This document shows positions 35,835 to 47,977 of a stretch of DNA of 64,000 nt, piece after piece; positions within the stretch are counted from its first letter, which is position 1; the number at the start of each line of letters is the position of its first letter. The translations under genes and the position numbers were made by a program. The stretch is taken from assembly GCF_056746865.1 (NCBI RefSeq), contig NZ_CM163382.1; one strand, 5' to 3'. The notes under the pieces are model-generated. The model was not told where the DNA came from, searched no databases, and saw only the letters and a program-made list of their open reading frames with translations.

Positions 35835-35911
35835 GCGCCCTTAGCTCAGTTGGATAGAGCAACGACCTTCTAAGTCGTGGGCCGCAGGTTCGAATCCTGC
35901 AGGGCGCGCCA
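35835..35911 (+). tRNA. argU: tRNA-Arg (anticodon TCT, reads AGA/AGG)
   Basis: 77-nt cloverleaf GCGCCCTTAGCTCAGTTGGATAGAGC...TCTAA...GGTTCGAATCCTGCAGGGCGCGCCA. Confidence 0.95.
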
Positions 35912-37090: not shown

Positions 37091-37317
37091 TTTCTTTCCT
37101 CTGTTATGCCATCACCCGCGCTCACCTGGACAGTATGCAGCGGAGACTGAAGCGCCGCAATGCAGGCTTGCCGTGTTGTGAGGTAAGGAGATTTTGGCTT
37201 GGTTGGATCTTTACGTGTTGCCTGTAGGCGGCCTGTTCGTATCCAGTTGGTGGCGGTTGGTCTGGATATCTTAAGAAACTGACAGGCCTCATCGAGTGTG
37301 AGGCTGTATGATTCCAT
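36946..37317 (-). CDS. Excisionase-like HTH protein (AlpA/Xis family), overlapping int start
   Basis: Track ORF 36946-37347; likely start [31 protein letters not shown]; exact 3' boundary uncertain. Confidence 0.55.
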
Positions 37318-37567
37318 GGTTACCTCTGCTTTTTGAACGCATGTCACGTAACTTCTTAATGTGTTCTGCCGTTTCGATCTCTTCTGCTATCCGATCTGCA
37401 TCAGCTTTATTCACAGGTTCAAAGTCATGATTAAAGCGGAACATGCTGGCGATACATGTTCTGCCTTTTCGGATGTAGTGAACTTTGTTGTGGGTAGAAC
37501 GCAGGATTTTGCAGGGAGTGCCGTGGTGGTCGACGTACCAGGTGTTAGGAAAAATGATTCTGAACAT
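37289..37567 (-). CDS. Hypothetical phage protein
   Basis: 92-aa ORF in early-left operon; no recognisable motif. Confidence 0.35.
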   Translation of the reverse strand: MFRIIFPNTWYVDHHGTPCKILRSTHNKVHYIRKGRTCIASMFRFNHDFEPVNKADADRIAEEIETAEHIKKLRDMRSKSRGNHGIIQPHTR

Positions 37568-37614
37568 TTTTACACCTCAGTTGGACGATGTTGAAATTTG
37601 CTGCTTTGAGGCCA

Positions 37615-37833
37615 TCATAGTCCCCATTGTTTGTTCTTAAGTTCGATCTCCTCCTGGCAACTTGCACAAGTCCGACAACCCTGAACAGCCAGGCGTCTTC
37701 GCTCATCTATCGGATCGCCACACTCACAACAATGAGTTGCGGATACAGTCTGGTAGTTCAGACGACGCATTTTTATTGCTGTATTGCGCTGTAATTCTTC
37801 GATTTCTGATGCTGAATCAATGATGTCTGCCAT
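37615..37833 (-). CDS. TraR/DksA-family C4 zinc-finger protein
   Basis: 72 aa; CxxC-x17-CxxC (CCECGDPIDERRRLAVQGCRTCASC). Confidence 0.7.
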   Translation of the reverse strand: MADIIDSASEIEELQRNTAIKMRRLNYQTVSATHCCECGDPIDERRRLAVQGCRTCASCQEEIELKNKQWGL

Positions 37834-37925
37834 CTTCCATTAATCCCTGAATTGTTGGTTAATACGCTTGAGGATGAATGCGAACAATAAAAAAGGAGCC
37901 TGTAGCTCCCTGATGATTTTGCTTT

Positions 37926-38243
37926 TCATGTTAACCGTTCCTTAAAGACGCCGTTTAACATGCCGATCGCCAGGCTTAAATGAGTCGGTGTGAATCCCAT
38001 CAGCGTTACCGTTTCACGGTGCTTCTTCAGTACGCTACGGCAAATGTCATCGACGTTTTTATCCGGAAACTGCTGTCTGGCTTTTTTGATTTCAGAATTA
38101 GCCTGACGGGCAATGCTGCGAAGGGCGTTTTCCTGCTGAGGTGTCATTGAACAAGTCCCATGTCGGCAAGCATAAGCACACAGAATATGAAGCCCGCTGC
38201 CAGAAAAATGCATTCCGTGGCTGTCATACCGGGTCTCTCTCAT
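37926..38243 (-). CDS. Hypothetical phage protein
   Basis: 105-aa ORF (possibly starting internally at MTPQQENAL). Confidence 0.35.
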   Translation of the reverse strand: MRETRYDSHGMHFSGSGLHILCAYACRHGTCSMTPQQENALRSIARQANSEIKKARQQFPDKNVDDICRSVLKKHRETVTLMGFTPTHLSLAIGMLNGVFKERLT

Positions 38244-41095: not shown

Positions 41096-42028
41096 CTATT
41101 CGATTTTTTTAACCATGTAGTTACGTCGTGATGTTCCTAATCTTTCATTGTGAATCTCAGAAACGCTTACTACGAGCGATATTCGTTCACCAACTTTATA
41201 TTTACTTTGAATTTCTCCTAACATATCAATCGGATAAGAAGCCTTTATTTTTCCAAGCTCGCTTGCAATCTCCAATTTCCCGTACATGGATAAAATAGCA
41301 AGTTCGCCTGATATATGCTCATCCGGTAGCTGAATGACCTTCGTTAAAGCTAAGCGAGCATTCAGTTTTTTTATATCTTCTGAAGAAATTGACACTTGTC
41401 TGGTACCATCACTTAAAGGTCCAATCCAAGTAAGATCAAAGTTAAGACTATATTTTTCGCACTCATTTATGATGTTTTTTAGGTTAGCTGTTGATTGCGA
41501 ACCAATTTCGGCAATTTTAGCCGTGAATGTTTCTTCATCAATGGATGAGAGTAGTGCAAAAATCTCCTTAACAGCATGACTGGATACTGTTTCGATGAGC
41601 TCGCAAGAACCAGTAGAAAAAGTAACACCTAACTTCGTCGAACCTGGACGCAAGTCTGCCAATCTCATGTCTAATGATTTTTTAACATCAATCGGCACAC
41701 GACTAGAATCTTTCCCAGATCCAAGTCGGTAAACTGCTTTCTGTACAAGGGATGCGAGATTACCTGAAATTACAGATAGAATATCTAACGGAATAGACCC
41801 GAAATCGACCAAAACACCTTTTAATCTCAACTCCATGAAATCACGTAAAGGATGTTGGTTATCGATTGCACGTTGTCTCTCTCGGAGATCGCTCAGATGG
41901 GAGTCAAGTGATCTAAATATAATGTCATCAGCAAATGATCTCCCCTTATTTTGAGCAAGCAGATCCACATCGCGTTGAATGAACGCAATTCGCTCCTTGA
42001 GGGAGTTGAATGTTTTTTCTTCGCTCAT
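41096..42028 (-). CDS. Hypothetical protein, distal gene of the rexAB-position operon
   Basis: 310 aa; AT-rich; start overlaps stop of upstream 157-aa gene (ATGA); no recognisable family. Confidence 0.6.
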   Translation of the reverse strand: MSEEKTFNSLKERIAFIQRDVDLLAQNKGRSFADDIIFRSLDSHLSDLRERQRAIDNQHPLRDFMELRLKGVLVDFGSIPLDILSVISGNLASLVQKAVYRLGSGKDSSRVPIDVKKSLDMRLADLRPGSTKLGVTFSTGSCELIETVSSHAVKEIFALLSSIDEETFTAKIAEIGSQSTANLKNIINECEKYSLNFDLTWIGPLSDGTRQVSISSEDIKKLNARLALTKVIQLPDEHISGELAILSMYGKLEIASELGKIKASYPIDMLGEIQSKYKVGERISLVVSVSEIHNERLGTSRRNYMVKKIE

Positions 42029-42498
42029 AACATTACCCTCACGAGGCCTTTAGGATTCTCCTTCCGATCAAAACCAAACCACCCTCTCCAGTAACTTCGC
42101 CTTTCACTATAATCGATTTCTGGATGATTTTCAGGCAGCAAAAGAACGTCAATGCTGTAGTTTTCTTTAATAAAATCTCTATTTAACAATGAGCTGACCA
42201 ATGGCATCAGCGTGTTTGGCAAAGAGTTTAGGGCCAAATAATCGACGACCACGAGTATATCTATGTCATCAGGTTCAGGTTTCTCTGTAGTGAATGAACC
42301 ATCGATCCACACTTCAGAGAAACATAGACACTGCTGATTAACAAGTTTAAATTGCTCAATAAGCTGTATAAAATTACAGTATAGCATACTTCTTCTAACG
42401 GATTTTGGGAAGGTGTCGACACAAAGAGACTTGATGCCATCACTATCCATATCATGAAATCCTGCTGTAAGAAGAGGTGGGAAGCTAGGCTTTTCCAT
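42025..42498 (-). CDS. Putative minimal nucleotidyltransferase-fold protein, proximal gene of the rexAB-position operon
   Basis: 157 aa; GS-x9-DxD motif (WIDGSFTTEKPEPDDIDILVVVD) typical of the Pol-beta NTase superfamily; AT-rich. Confidence 0.55.
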   Translation of the reverse strand: MEKPSFPPLLTAGFHDMDSDGIKSLCVDTFPKSVRRSMLYCNFIQLIEQFKLVNQQCLCFSEVWIDGSFTTEKPEPDDIDILVVVDYLALNSLPNTLMPLVSSLLNRDFIKENYSIDVLLLPENHPEIDYSERRSYWRGWFGFDRKENPKGLVRVML

Positions 42499-42579
42499 CC
42501 TAAGTCCTTGTTTATGCCATATAGTGTTCTATTTAATATTCTTGAAAAGAGTGTGCCTTAAAAAGCTACAGGCTAATTA

Positions 42580-43269
42580 TTAACCATGCTTCCTGTACGT
42601 CTGCGGCATGCTCCCAATAACCTTACCGAAGATGAACACCCGGTTCATCTCGTCTTTCTCGATCGGGTCCCACGGTGAGTAGCTTTTGTTATCAGAGATG
42701 ACCAGCAGCTTATCCTTCATCATTTGCAGGCGCTTTACATGGGCTGTGTCGTCGTACAGAAACGCATAGATACCATCACCGTCGAAAGATTTAACTGTGA
42801 TATCAACGAACAGCAGATCACCTGGTTCGATCGTTCCTGACATGCTGTCACCACGCACGTTAATGATGCGGATATTTTCCGCCTTCCTACCATCGAACAT
42901 GTGACGAGCATCGTCAAACGAGTACTCAACCGAGCGTAGAACTTCTACAAACTCACGGTTGATGACTCCCGGCCCAGCACTGACTTCTATATCAAGAACG
43001 TCAATCTTGAAGTATTTGGAATGGCTGACAGTTGATTGTATTGGTTGCACTGTACTGTCTGACATATTTCCAACGCCAGAAGATAACCATTCTGCGCGCA
43101 CACCCAAAGCGTTCGCGATCTCCACGATTTTAGTTGTTTGATTAGCTTTCCCTGTTTCGATTTTCTGAATAGCAGCCTGGCTAACCCCGACCAAATCCCC
43201 AAGCGCCTTTTGTGTAAGGCCTCGCGCTAATCTGGCTTCTTTAAGTCTTTCTGAGAGTGTTGTTTTCAT
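42580..43269 (-). CDS. cI: CI-like prophage repressor (HTH plus S24 LexA-like autopeptidase)
   Basis: 229 aa from MKTTLSERLKEARLARGLTQKALGDLVGVSQAAIQKIE; C-terminal S24 region (GDSMSGT ... K); divergent from cro. Confidence 0.85.
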   Translation of the reverse strand: MKTTLSERLKEARLARGLTQKALGDLVGVSQAAIQKIETGKANQTTKIVEIANALGVRAEWLSSGVGNMSDSTVQPIQSTVSHSKYFKIDVLDIEVSAGPGVINREFVEVLRSVEYSFDDARHMFDGRKAENIRIINVRGDSMSGTIEPGDLLFVDITVKSFDGDGIYAFLYDDTAHVKRLQMMKDKLLVISDNKSYSPWDPIEKDEMNRVFIFGKVIGSMPQTYRKHG

Positions 43270-43274
43270 AGTCC

Positions 43275-43373
43275 AAATGTACAACCAAGGTTTTATTCCA
43301 TCAAACGAAAATGGTTGTTGACTAAAAACAACCATAGTTTTAATCTTGATTCAAATTAACCACGGAGGTTGTT
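43275..43373. promoter_or_regulatory. Putative OR/pR/pRM operator region
   Basis: Inverted repeat ATGGTTGT-n9-ACAACCAT (43311-43335) plus further ACAACCA/GGTTGTT half-sites between divergent cI and cro. Confidence 0.6.
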
Positions 43374-43604
43374 ATGAACCCAGCTATCAAAACAGCGATC
43401 AATATCGTTGGTTCACAAAAGAAACTGGGCGCTGCTTGCGAAGTTTCACAGCAGGCCGTCTATAAGTGGCTTCACAACAAAGCAAAGGTATCCCCTGAAC
43501 ATGTCGGCAGCATTGTTACGGCTACTGGTGGAGTAGTGAAGGCATACCAGATTCGCCCGGATCTTCCGAAGTTGTTTCCACACACCGAAAAGAACGCAGC
43601 TTAA
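43374..43604 (+). CDS. Cro-like HTH regulator (YdaS-like)
   Basis: 76 aa; HTH KKLGAACEVSQQAVYKWL; first gene rightward of the operators. Confidence 0.7.
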   Translation: MNPAIKTAINIVGSQKKLGAACEVSQQAVYKWLHNKAKVSPEHVGSIVTATGGVVKAYQIRPDLPKLFPHTEKNAA

Positions 43605-43673
43605 ATTTCCATTTCACGCTCTTTAACAATAAGCAATCAACTTAACAGTCAATTCAAACTAAAGGAGTCAATT

Positions 43674-44213
43674 ATGCAACCACTTCCATACCAACAGACT
43701 AGCGGATTTAGCCCGACTGCGGTGATAAATCGTTCTCAAACAAAACAGGTGCCAGGCCACGAAAAAATCCGTGATGCCGTCCGCGCCTGGTCGGCTGTAG
43801 ATAATCAGGATGTCGTTGCCACACTCATTGTGAATGAGTATCGGGAGCAGGGCGGCGGCACCATCGATTTCCCTGATGATGTCAGCCGTGCACGCCAGAA
43901 GCTGTTCCGCTTCCTCGATAACAAATTCGATTCTGAAAAATACCGAAATAACGTGCGTGAACTGACCCCGGCAATTCTGGCGGTACTACCGCTGGAATAT
44001 CGCGGTTACCTGGTTGAGCAGGATAGCTTCATGGCTAGGTTGGCTGAAATGGAAAAGGAACTCAGTGAGGCAAAACAGGCTGTCATTCTCAACGCACCAC
44101 GCCACCAGAAACTGAAGGAAATTAGTGAAGGTATTGTATCGATGTTTCGTGTGGACCCAGATCTGGCTGGTCCATTGATGGCGATGGTTACTACCATGCT
44201 GGGGGCGATATGA
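43674..44213 (+). CDS. CII-position regulatory protein (YdaT/CII-like family suspected)
   Basis: 179 aa; position between cro and O; family assignment from memory, not verified. Confidence 0.45.
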   Translation: MQPLPYQQTSGFSPTAVINRSQTKQVPGHEKIRDAVRAWSAVDNQDVVATLIVNEYREQGGGTIDFPDDVSRARQKLFRFLDNKFDSEKYRNNVRELTPAILAVLPLEYRGYLVEQDSFMARLAEMEKELSEAKQAVILNAPRHQKLKEISEGIVSMFRVDPDLAGPLMAMVTTMLGAI

Positions 44214-44299
44214 CAGGTTCAGAAATGGCGAAAGCCGGTCTGCTGGAACAGAACCGACTTTCAGGTGCAAATCGTAACACACTCATTGCGGGAGGAATT

Positions 44300-45229
44300 A
44301 TGGCAAACACTGCTGAGATATTCAATTTTCCAGTGCCGGATGCGGCACAAAAGGAGCCGCGCGTGGCAGATCTCGATGATGGTTATACGCGCATTGCAAA
44401 TGAGTTGCTGGAAGCTGTGATGCTGGCCGGATTAACACAGCACCAGCTTCTGGTCTTCCTGGCTGTCATGCGCAAAACATATGGCTTTAATAAAAAACTG
44501 GATTGGGTGAGCAACGAGCAACTTTCCGAATTGACCGGGATATTGCCGCACAAGTGTTCTGCTGCAAAAAGCGTTCTGGTAAAGCGTGGGATTCTTATTC
44601 AGAGCGGGCGGAATATCGGCATTAATAATGTGGTCAGTGAATGGTCAACATTACCCGAATCAGGTAAGAAAAATAAAGTTTACCTGAAAGAGGTAAATTT
44701 ACCTGAATCAGGTAAGAAAAGTTTACCCAAATCAGGTAAAGGCGTTTACCCGAATCAGGTAAACACAAAAGACAAACTAACAAAAGACAATATAAAACCT
44801 TTTTCGTCCGAGAATTCTGGCGAATCCTCTGACCAGCCAGAAAACGATCTTCCTGTGGTGAAACCGGATGCTGCAATTCAGAGCGGCAGCAAGTGGGGGA
44901 CAGCAGAAGACCTGACCGCCGCAGAGTGGATGTTTGACATGGTGAAGACTATCGCACCATCAGCCAGAAAACCGAATTTTGCTGGGTGGGCTAACGATAT
45001 CCGCCTGATGCGTGAACGTGACGGACGTAACCACCGCGACATGTGCGTGCTGTTCCGCTGGGCCTGCCAGGACAACTTCTGGTCCGGTAACGTGCTGAGT
45101 CCGGCCAAACTCCGCGACAAGTGGACCCAGCTCGAAATCAACCGGAACAAGCAACAGGCTGGCGTGACAGTCGGCAAACCAAAACTCGACCTGACAAACA
45201 CTGACTGGATTTACGGGGTGGATCTATGA
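44300..45229 (+). CDS. O: Replication initiator O (lambda-like C-terminus, divergent iteron-binding N-terminus)
   Basis: Start at ATG 44300 (MANTAEIFNFPVP) with GGAGG RBS; C-terminal ~110 aa match lambda O (PENDLPVVKPDAAIQSGSKWGTAEDLTAAEWMFDMVK...). Confidence 0.85.
   Translation: MANTAEIFNFPVPDAAQKEPRVADLDDGYTRIANELLEAVMLAGLTQHQLLVFLAVMRKTYGFNKKLDWVSNEQLSELTGILPHKCSAAKSVLVKRGILIQSGRNIGINNVVSEWSTLPESGKKNKVYLKEVNLPESGKKSLPKSGKGVYPNQVNTKDKLTKDNIKPFSSENSGESSDQPENDLPVVKPDAAIQSGSKWGTAEDLTAAEWMFDMVKTIAPSARKPNFAGWANDIRLMRERDGRNHRDMCVLFRWACQDNFWSGNVLSPAKLRDKWTQLEINRNKQQAGVTVGKPKLDLTNTDWIYGVDL
44640..44770 (+). repeat. Origin iterons (ori) inside the O gene
   Basis: Four or more direct repeats of tacc(c/t)gaatcaggtaa(g/a), giving the repeated LPESGK peptide; followed by an AT-rich stretch. 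Confidence 0.75.
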
Positions 45230-45927
45230 AAAACATCGCCGCACAGATGGTTAACTTTGACCGTGAGCAGATGCGTCGGATCGCCAACAACATGCCGGAA
45301 CAGTATGACGAAAAGCCACAGGTACAGCAGGTAGCGCAGATCATCAACGGTGTGTTCAGCCAGTTACTGGCAACTTTCCCGGCGAGCCTGGCTAATCGTG
45401 AGCAGAACGAACTGAACGAAATCCGCCGCCAGTGGGTTCTGGCTTTCCGGGAAAACGGGATCACCACGATGGAACAGGTTAACGCAGGAATGCGCGTAGC
45501 CCGTCGGCAGAATCGACCATTCCTGCCATCCCCCGGACAGTTTGTAGCCTGGTGCCGGGAAGAAGCATCCGTTATTGCCGGACTACCAAACACCAGCGAG
45601 CTGGTTGATATGGTTTACGAGTATTGCCGGAAGCGTGGCCTGTATCCGGATGCAGAGTCTTATCCGTGGAAATCAAACGCGCACTACTGGCTGGTTACCA
45701 ACCTGTATCAGAACATGCGGGCCAATGCGCTTACTGATGCGGAATTACGGCGCAAGGCTGCCGATGAACTGACTTGTATGACCGCGCGAATTAACCGTGG
45801 TGAGGCGATACCTGAACCAGTAAAACAACTTCCTGTCATGGGCGGTAGACCTCTAAATCGTGCACAGGCTCTGGCGAAGATCGCAGAAATCAAAGCGAAG
45901 TTCGGACTGAAAGGAGCAACTGTATGA
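45226..45927 (+). CDS. P: Replication protein P (DnaB helicase loader)
   Basis: 233 aa, near-identical to lambda P. Confidence 0.92.
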   Translation: MKNIAAQMVNFDREQMRRIANNMPEQYDEKPQVQQVAQIINGVFSQLLATFPASLANREQNELNEIRRQWVLAFRENGITTMEQVNAGMRVARRQNRPFLPSPGQFVAWCREEASVIAGLPNTSELVDMVYEYCRKRGLYPDAESYPWKSNAHYWLVTNLYQNMRANALTDAELRRKAADELTCMTARINRGEAIPEPVKQLPVMGGRPLNRAQALAKIAEIKAKFGLKGATV

Positions 45928-46226
45928 CGGGCAAAGAGGCAATTATTCATTACCTGGGGACGCATAAGAGCTTCTGTGCGCAGGACGTTGCTGCGGTAAC
46001 AGGCGCAACAGTAACCAGTATAAATCAGGCTGCGGCTAAAATGGCACGGGCAGGAATCTTGGTCGTTGATGGTAAGGTCTGGCGAACGGTGTATTACCGG
46101 TTCGCTACCAGGGAAGAACGGGAAGGAAAGGTGAGCACGAATCTGATTTTCAAGGAGTGTCGCCAGAGTGCCGCGATGAAACGAGTGTTGGCAGTGTATG
46201 GAGATATGAACTTAAACTTGCTGTGA
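45924..46226 (+). CDS. ren: Ren (Rex-exclusion resistance) protein
   Basis: 100 aa, matches lambda Ren (MTGKEAIIHYLGTH...). Confidence 0.88.
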   Translation: MTGKEAIIHYLGTHKSFCAQDVAAVTGATVTSINQAAAKMARAGILVVDGKVWRTVYYRFATREEREGKVSTNLIFKECRQSAAMKRVLAVYGDMNLNLL

Positions 46227-46474
46227 CGGTTTTCATCGGTAACACACCATGTAATCTAGCAGTCAGCTTAGAAATAGGAGCGGCAGTTAAAGATTTTTCA
46301 GTTAGTAGAAAATTACTGTTATTGCAGGGATCTAATCACCGGAGAGTCGTTCCATTTGTCTTATGATTACCTGAAGTCCGTTAGTTCGTTGGTAATCACC
46401 GTTTTTGTTAGAGAAGTAAGCATCGCTGACAAAATATTCTCAACGATGCCTGCTTTATTGCTACTACAAATTAA

Positions 46475-47977
46475 TTAAATTGCATCTGCAAACTCTGGGG
46501 TTTTTCGCTCAGGTATAATTGATGAGTTGCTGTTGTCACTTTTTTTATTTTCATGATTACGAATAGCCAATGACTCATTAAAGTCTTTTGCGACTGCTGT
46601 CTCAATAAATTCAATTTCTGAATCAGAGTGTTTTTTAACAGCTTCTTTGATCTCATCCAGAGTAACATAGAAAAACTCTTTTCTACGATTTACAAGATTG
46701 ACTCTCTTTTTATCGAAGACATCATGTAGTTTTTTTTCTAATGATGGAGCGTCCTCCGAATAAATCATGGCATGTACATCAAAAATAAAAGGAACAGATG
46801 CATCACCGAGCTCATTTACACGGTCTTGCGGATCAAGACGTCGTGTCATGCCTATTTTATAAACATTCTCCCCAAAAGAACCTATGTTCGAAATAATATA
46901 AACATGACCTTGTTTGGTTTGTTGTGCCATGGATAATGCTCTTTGATGCTTTGATTCAGCCTGCGACAAACTCTGTTCTAGTTCGGCAATGCGATTTTCG
47001 AGGCGCTGCTTCATGTCACCAGTAACTTTTTCCATTTCCTTTCTTGCAGCTTCAATTGCTTTTTTATAACGGCGCTCTTCTGCCTCTGCGTCTTGCATGG
47101 CCTTTTCTATTTCTCGTTGTGCACGCTCCTCCTCTCTCATTTGTGCCCTTATTTCTGCCTGTTCTTCTTTTTCTTTCTGTTTTTGCTCACGATATTCATG
47201 GGTAAGCCACAATTCCTCAAGTTTTTTATTGAGGTATTTAGTGTTTATATATATGTGATTTTGCTCGTTTAGTTTATTTATGGCCTCAAATGCCTTTGTG
47301 ATGCGTTCTTCCATTTTAGTGATGTTTTTCCACGTGCAATTGCTAATTGCAGCATCACATTCATTATTAAATGCTCTAGTAGTTAGCCTGATATTTCTGT
47401 CTGTCATTTTTTTACCCTCTGCTCGAGAGCCTTCAACAGTCCATTGGGTTGTACAATATACTGCGCCAGAGTGGGTTTTATCCCGCAGCATTAATTTCTG
47501 TTCATCCCTGATGGATTTTATTTTGTTTTTAAATTGCTCTGAATCTTCAAAATTAAAATGAGGTTCGTAAAATCCTAGTTCGGCTAGCTCAACATCTTCT
47601 GAATAAATAGAAATTTGCCTTACTAGTTTATCATATATTTCTTTCTTCTCTTTATAAGTTCTTCTTAGCTCTTGGATTTGTTTATTGATACCATCCATTT
47701 TTTCAATGGTGTTTGTTAGTTCATTATTGGCATTTTCTTTTACTTTTAGGGATTCTTCTTTTATTATGGAGCATTCTTGCTCTGTTTTCTCAATAAGCTT
47801 CTTACATTCTTCTTCTACATTAAAATAATCTGCAAAGCGAGATTTGTATTCTTCATTTTTTTGATTGCTATCACTTAATTCTAATTGTATTTTTTTGATG
47901 CGTTTGATTGCAGCTATATAAAGAACAAGAACAACCAATAAAAATATGATTGCAAGTAATAGAGGAGTTTGAGTCAT
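46475..47977 (-). CDS. Membrane-anchored coiled-coil protein with C-terminal T5orf172/GIY-YIG-like domain (DUF4041-like middle region)
   Basis: 500 aa; N-terminal TM helix (LLLAIIFLLVVLVLYIAAI); long E/K/R-rich coiled coils; C-terminal GHVYIISNIGSFGENVYKIGMTRRLDPQDRVNELGDASVPFIFDVHAMIY; antisense to flanking phage genes; strongly AT-rich. Confidence 0.7.
   Translation of the reverse strand: MTQTPLLLAIIFLLVVLVLYIAAIKRIKKIQLELSDSNQKNEEYKSRFADYFNVEEECKKLIEKTEQECSIIKEESLKVKENANNELTNTIEKMDGINKQIQELRRTYKEKKEIYDKLVRQISIYSEDVELAELGFYEPHFNFEDSEQFKNKIKSIRDEQKLMLRDKTHSGAVYCTTQWTVEGSRAEGKKMTDRNIRLTTRAFNNECDAAISNCTWKNITKMEERITKAFEAINKLNEQNHIYINTKYLNKKLEELWLTHEYREQKQKEKEEQAEIRAQMREEERAQREIEKAMQDAEAEERRYKKAIEAARKEMEKVTGDMKQRLENRIAELEQSLSQAESKHQRALSMAQQTKQGHVYIISNIGSFGENVYKIGMTRRLDPQDRVNELGDASVPFIFDVHAMIYSEDAPSLEKKLHDVFDKKRVNLVNRRKEFFYVTLDEIKEAVKKHSDSEIEFIETAVAKDFNESLAIRNHENKKSDNSNSSIIPERKTPEFADAI

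Follow-up and report, generated by a model that had tools for sequence, protein, structure and literature searches.

A probable lambdoid prophage replication origin with the architecture of ori-lambda and its own iteron class

We analysed a 64-kb stretch of DNA (hereafter, the window) and found that the replication gene O of a prophage within it carries five direct repeats followed by an AT-rich tract. Judging from the sequence comparisons described below, we are highly confident that this region is a lambdoid-prophage replication origin, which shares the build of ori-lambda and differs from it in the specificity of its initiator and iterons. The element is an ordinary origin of a known kind, since it is abundant, is annotated in phages and belongs to a family in which the division of O was established by earlier phage hybrids.

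Iterons, AT-rich tract and the genes O and P

An earlier note on this DNA had described at least four direct repeats of tacc(c/t)gaatcaggtaa, followed by an AT-rich tract, in the middle of O. We find five repeats, three of them exact to this consensus, on the plus strand at 44651-44762. The array occupies nt 352-463 of the 930-nt gene, with iterons starting at nt 352, 381, 400, 424 and 447 (start-to-start spacing of 29, 19, 24 and 23 bp), and the AT-rich tract is where the note had placed it (Table 1). The repeat unit is 17 bp long and has the form TTACC-N7-GGTAA. Its 5-bp inverted arms are perfect in all five copies; the differences are confined to the central bases, which read TGAAAGA in copy 2 and CAAATCA in copy 4. 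Successive sites are about two helical turns apart and lie where O encodes its linker, directly upstream of an A-skewed tract. With up to three mismatches allowed, the motif occurs at only five sites in the 64 kb (10 matches when both strands are counted, because the unit is palindromic), compared to a chance expectation of 0.15 matches and a maximum of 2 in 100 dinucleotide shuffles.

Table 1. Features of the origin region in window coordinates; the last three lines are relatives with the same O N-terminal domain, with positions in the respective locus.
Feature	Position	Strand	Description
Gene O	44300..45229	+	replication initiator, 309 aa from ATG 44300; Pfam Phage_rep_O, by homology
O N-terminal domain	44300..44644	+	aa 1-115; type-specific origin-binding domain, predicted winged helix; 49% identical to lambda, 83% to Klebsiella
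Iteron 1	44651..44667	+	TTACCCGAATCAGGTAA; extra distal copy, without lambda counterpart
Iteron 2	44680..44696	+	TTACCTGAAAGAGGTAA; positional counterpart of lambda iteron 1
Iteron 3	44699..44715	+	TTACCTGAATCAGGTAA; positional counterpart of lambda iteron 2
Iteron 4	44723..44739	+	TTACCCAAATCAGGTAA; positional counterpart of lambda iteron 3
Iteron 5	44746..44762	+	TTACCCGAATCAGGTAA; positional counterpart of lambda iteron 4; adjoins the AT-rich tract
AT-rich tract	44763..44806	+	presumed DNA-unwinding element; 44 bp, 27% GC, 55% A on the + strand
O C-terminal domain	44807..45229	+	lambda-like; last 140 aa 98% identical to lambda O
Gene P	45226..45927	+	helicase loader; 226/233 (97%) identical to lambda P; Pfam Phage_lambda_P, E=2e-61
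L091	2001-3712		E. coli; 284-aa O, then IstB/DnaC-like ATPase
L004	1201-2893		Klebsiella phage ST11-VIM1phi8.2; O, then IstB/DnaC-like AAA ATPase
L090	2001-3529		Salmonella; 278-aa O, then distant P relative, 34% identical to the window P

The region has the features of an O/P-type phage origin. The initiator gene contains five dyad-symmetric iterons; the AT-rich tract, immediately to the right of iteron 5, aligns with that of lambda. It contains two ACAAAAGACAA repeats that are present in lambda too, and ACACAAAAGACA, which is common to all the ori types aligned. The O protein carries the Phage_rep_O domain (PF04492; E=1.4e-34, 118.9 bits versus a cut-off of 28.7, aa 21-115), and its lambda-like C-terminal domain is followed directly by P, the start of which overlaps the O stop. 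An Rfam search of 42000-47000 gave no match. An 80-aa minus-strand ORF that runs across the array (44634-44876) was rejected as a by-product of the A-rich strand, which holds few stop codons.

The reading frames of O and P are both intact. Full-length O is 67% identical to lambda O and has a 10-residue insertion in the repeat-coded linker. This insertion corresponds to the additional repeat, iteron 1, the alignment columns of which are absent from lambda. From about nt 541-554 onwards (query starting at 44210) the O DNA matches 434, SfI and lambda hybrids at 94-96% identity, and the identities in Table 1 agree with the earlier note's description of the O C-terminus and P as lambda-like. In lambda, the O C-terminal domain interacts with P.

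In RefSeq/PGAP and in several phage records O begins at ATG 44210, which makes it 339 aa long and lets it overlap the stop of the preceding gene. Homology with the O proteins of lambda, Klebsiella and Salmonella sets in at MANTAE, i.e. at ATG 44300, and GGAGG is located just upstream of it (44290-44294). Proteins of 309 and of 339 aa both exist in the databases; the 30 extra codons (44210-44299) are probably an annotation artefact. The O ATG is also overlapped by the sole sigma-70-like promoter match in 43300-46300 (44297-44325, minus strand, TTGAAT-17-CATAAT with extended TG), which points leftward and corresponds in place and direction to lambda pO, from which the oop antisense RNA is transcribed. 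Near this match there is no Rfam match, and no clear terminator was seen.

Comparison with other origins and exchange of modules

The window origin resembles that of lambda in that it lies inside gene O, has dyad-symmetric iterons 19-24 bp apart at the same gene positions and a homologous AT-rich tract (ACAAAAGACA included), and is nearly identical to lambda rightward of the tract. The annotated lambda iterons start at nt 349, 369, 393 and 416 of O (spacing of 20, 24 and 23 bp), with the TCCCTC arm at 350, 370, 394 and 417. After a shift of 30 nt, the arms of lambda iterons 2-4 start exactly where those of window iterons 3-5 do (400, 424 and 447), and the arm of lambda iteron 1 falls at 380, one nucleotide from window iteron 2 (381). 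The two origins differ in iteron number (four in lambda, five in the window), in the N-terminal DNA-binding domain of O, and in the iteron sequence itself: lambda, 434 and 21 iterons have arms TCCCTC/GAGGGA and are ATCCCTCAAAACGAGGGA-like, whereas no TCCCTC-type site was found in the origin region of the window, which sets it apart from the ori-lambda specificity class. The earlier note had called the origin specificity non-lambda and held that iterons identical to those of ori-lambda would overturn this; since the arms are TTACC/GGTAA and not TCCCTC/GAGGGA, they are not identical, and in alignments against lambda, 434, 21, phi80 and HK97 the window arms differ from all.

Additional distal iterons are known from Stx phages: the origins of 933W and P27 have six, the extra distal copies upstream of the core four lengthening O (PMC7466680). 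The window likewise has one extra distal iteron, but the Stx-phage iterons are of the lambda type and accompany an O N-domain 98% identical to that of lambda, while the window iterons belong to another class. The phi80 gene 15/ori and the HK97/P22-type gp18 (O) follow the same plan as the window, with iterons in an O-like gene and then an ACAAAAGA-type AT-rich tract; they have four iterons, and arm sequence and N-domain are particular to each. The phi80 arms are of the TTCCCG type; HK97 and Salmonella phage SEN34 have TTAGC-N7-GCTAA arms, which differ from the window's by one base per half-site. In HK97, O is paired with a DnaB-like helicase gene and not with P. On the strength of the comparisons with lambda, phi80, HK97 and SEN34, we describe the window origin as the lambda architecture with its own iteron sequence. 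Iteron-type plasmid replicons (RepA, RepE, pi) also place a winged-helix initiator on phased direct repeats beside an AT-rich unwinding element. What the comparison shows is a likeness in working principle rather than in sequence or family; in the window the initiator gene itself holds the iterons, and a phage loader brings the helicase.

The two halves of the origin have separate affinities. Relative to lambda, the N-domain of O is 49% identical and the iterons are different, while the C-terminal 140 aa are 98% identical; relative to the Klebsiella phage, the N-domain is 83% identical and the five iterons are alike at the same O positions, while the C-terminal part (16% identical) is unrelated. 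The same combination of N-domain (82-89% identical) and five iterons at 352/381/400/424/447 recurs in L091, L004 and L090, all with O C-terminal domains unrelated to that of the window. Since lambda shares the C-domain and P with the window, and these three loci the N-domain and iterons, N-domain plus iterons form one unit and C-domain plus loader another. The comparisons support the view that the former is an exchangeable specificity module and the latter a second module, the shared AT-rich tract being the likely junction. This is in good agreement with two further proposals of the earlier note, namely that the N-terminal domain and the iterons co-vary (the same pair is kept with differing C-domains and loaders) and that the origin arose by a modular swap (lambda shares the C-domain and P, but neither the N-domain nor the iterons). 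The co-variation panel is small, comprising four iteron classes and about ten independent lineages, because near-identical copies made up most of what the IMG/VR locus search yielded. C-domain and loader are not paired one-to-one, given that an IstB/DnaC-like ATPase is used in E. coli and Klebsiella but a P-family protein in Salmonella. The region thus offers a clean textbook case of module exchange at the ori AT-rich tract, with one N-domain/iteron module joined to at least three C-domain/loader modules.

Among 45 distinct alleles of the window O type (loci L010-L066), 218 of 427 sites are polymorphic in the C-terminal part versus 43 of 345 N-domain sites. The C-terminal half has therefore diverged in at least some alleles, and this suggests additional mosaicism rightward of the AT-rich tract. 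Separately, Escherichia phage D2 (OM475427.1, about 37209-38140) matches the window O at 99.2% over nt 1-246 only, after which there is a break, and two O CDSs are annotated at that place in the record. The N-domain coding region of D2 thus seems to contain a mosaic junction or to be disrupted.

Selection on the iteron DNA and recognition by O

Comparison of the window with the Klebsiella phage separates the constraint on DNA from that on protein. The iteron arms are identical at 49 of 50 positions (98%), compared to 16 of 27 (59%) in the inter-iteron spacers, 28 of 35 in the iteron central bases, and 271 of 345 in the N-domain coding DNA, with 67 of 115 (58%) at third codon positions (Fisher tests: arms versus spacers, p=1.8e-5; arms versus third positions, p=1.9e-8). 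The 45 alleles are polymorphic at only 3 of 50 arm positions. Iterons 1, 3 and 4 begin at codon position 1 and encode LPESGK-like peptides, while iterons 2 and 5 begin at position 3 and encode YLKEV and VYPNQV; because these two are read in another frame, selection acts on the DNA and not on the peptide. The alternative, that the repeats arise only because O has a repetitive, flexible (LPESGKK-like) linker and do not serve as DNA sites, draws on the shared LPESGK/LPKSGK reading of copies 1, 3 and 4 and on the location of the repeats between two folded domains of O. We rejected it in its pure form on the grounds of reading frame and arm-versus-spacer conservation: copies 2 and 5 encode unrelated peptides, yet their TTACC/GGTAA arms are perfect, and the arms exceed the spacers in conservation within one and the same linker-coding stretch. 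Moreover, each unit is an inverted repeat, for which a peptide repeat has no need, and the homologous lambda sites are experimentally defined O-binding sites (PMC7466680, PMC8022706). A peptide origin of the repeats is accordingly very improbable. In Stx phage P27, synonymous mutations in the iteron arms abolish origin function (PMC7466680).

Two other readings concern the function of the array as DNA. Palindromic 17-mers are typical of many dimeric regulators, and the cro and cII positions of this prophage are occupied by unusual YdaS/YdaT-like proteins, so a protein other than O (a host factor, the prophage repressor or a CII-like regulator) might be the one that binds. However, the motif is found nowhere else in the 64-kb window, the immunity region included, and in Klebsiella, Salmonella and E. 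coli the iterons lie beside differing immunity genes (PF05269 CII-type instead of YdaT-type) while the O N-domain stays constant; we give this reading hardly any credence. It is also improbable, if a little less so, that the array is an inactive relic, a former origin that no longer fires in a defective prophage. Defective prophages are common at the argU/DLP12 site of E. coli, and this one is only partly within the window, but the O and P frames are intact, the arms are perfect in all five iterons and polymorphism avoids them. Furthermore, ori regions 98.6-99.2% identical to this one are found in 4A7, Perceval, PhiR30_1 and other separately named phage genomes, several with a laboratory E. 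coli strain as the stated host.

A working lambdoid origin hence remains our preferred reading, and its mechanism may be sketched by analogy with lambda. In lambda, O binds the iterons and forms the O-some, and the AT-rich tract is needed for unwinding (PMC7466680, PMC8022706); the iterons nearest this tract are sufficient in vitro (PMC7466680). In the window, dimers of the prophage's own O would sit on each site via the N-terminal winged-helix domain, one monomer per half-site, with aa 83-95 as the probable recognition helix and aa 99-108 as the wing in the structural model. The bound dimers would assemble into an O-some, bend the DNA and open the neighbouring AT-rich tract; the lambda-type C-terminal domain would then recruit the P-DnaB complex, from which host chaperones would release the DnaB helicase. 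We infer from the divergent arms and N-domain that the firing specificity of the window O is separate from that of ori-lambda in both directions.

An AlphaFold2 model of aa 1-117 (mean pLDDT 78, from a shallow 15-sequence alignment) has helices at 28-43, 47-59, 72-79 and 83-95 and a hairpin at 99-108, a layout predicted to be that of a winged helix-turn-helix. Foldseek matches against the PDB are weak, with none at E<=0.001, and the top ones are all winged-helix proteins of the CRP/FNR/MarR kind; a PDB sequence search with O found no O-family relative. SEN34 O is 85% identical to the window O over aa 1-41 and 40% over aa 76-115, and since SEN34 diverges in this latter part and its iteron class changes to TTAGC, the specificity determinants probably lie in the predicted recognition helix and wing. 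At the start of this helix the TTACC class has LPHK where SEN34 and HK97, both of the TTAGC class, have HHTH.

The individual iterons need not be equal. The right arm of iteron 1 is imperfect in Klebsiella and Salmonella, and across genera iterons 3-5 are the best conserved while the centres of iterons 1 and 2 vary, which would be compatible with differences in O binding among the five. In Stx phages the extra iterons appear to be regulatory rather than needed for firing. A fuller proposal, that the TTACC class is biochemically uncharacterised, that LPHK/HHTH gives a residue-to-base code and that the distal iteron is regulatory rather than firing, is one we consider possible but doubtful. If true, it would provide a simple residue-to-base recognition code for O-family initiators, with SEN34 as the natural chimera pointing to it.

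Occurrence, phage 82 and prophage context

Among 5,426 complete E. coli genomes, 2,452 (about 45%) contain the 501-bp segment that covers the N-domain and iterons; in 2,296 of these at least 80% of the segment is present, nearly always at >=95% identity. At least 999 contigs encode exactly this O protein, which belongs to a 90% cluster of 7,825 members, named 'replication protein' only. At least 15 sequenced, separately named phage genomes carry the module; in fifteen phage records the whole O gene is present, with 97.5-98.1% identity and the annotation replication protein O. Searching a protein database with aa 1-165 of O recovered 1,511 clusters of N-domain relatives, from Escherichia, Salmonella, Klebsiella, Scandinavium and Pluralibacter. 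The finding locates the origin in a prophage type that is very common in E. coli. Its value is mainly that of an annotation, although it bears on whether co-resident lambdoid prophages would cross-replicate or interfere with each other and on the construction of compatible lambda-dv-like vectors.

Phage 82 represents the classical third lambdoid ori type. It has its own iteron type, possibly in five copies, and an O C-terminus compatible with lambda. No relative named phage 82 was among the 1,511 found, and full-text literature searches for the iteron sequence, for ori82 and for phage 82 with iterons returned nothing usable. As PMC6022878 states with reference to Furth & Yates 1978, the division of O into an N-terminal/ori and a C-terminal/P part was established with lambda-phi80 and lambda-82 hybrids.

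The prophage adjoins tRNA-Arg(tct) (35835-35911), at the argU/intD (DLP12) attachment site. Strain 118UI is 100% identical over the 501-bp N-terminal/iteron query, and its prophage carries an intD-annotated integrase gene, a late region of DLP12 type (rusA-quuD-essD-rrrD) and an ompC/nmpC-like porin gene; the rusA-quuD-essD-rrrD set resembles the late region of phage 82. PhiR30_1 covers 78% of the window prophage at 96% identity.

Upstream of O, the cro position (43374-43604) encodes a 76-aa YdaS-like HTH protein and not a lambda-type Cro, and the cII position (43674-44213) a 179-aa protein with a YdaT_toxin domain and not a lambda-type CII; at the corresponding position phi80 has a ~180-aa protein annotated cII. 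Downstream, between ren and the nin region, a 500-aa minus-strand ORF (46475-47977) has a coiled-coil-like, Lys/Glu-rich middle; in a related genome it carries the annotation of a DUF4041 domain protein. It resembles an inserted moron, with a possible function in defence.
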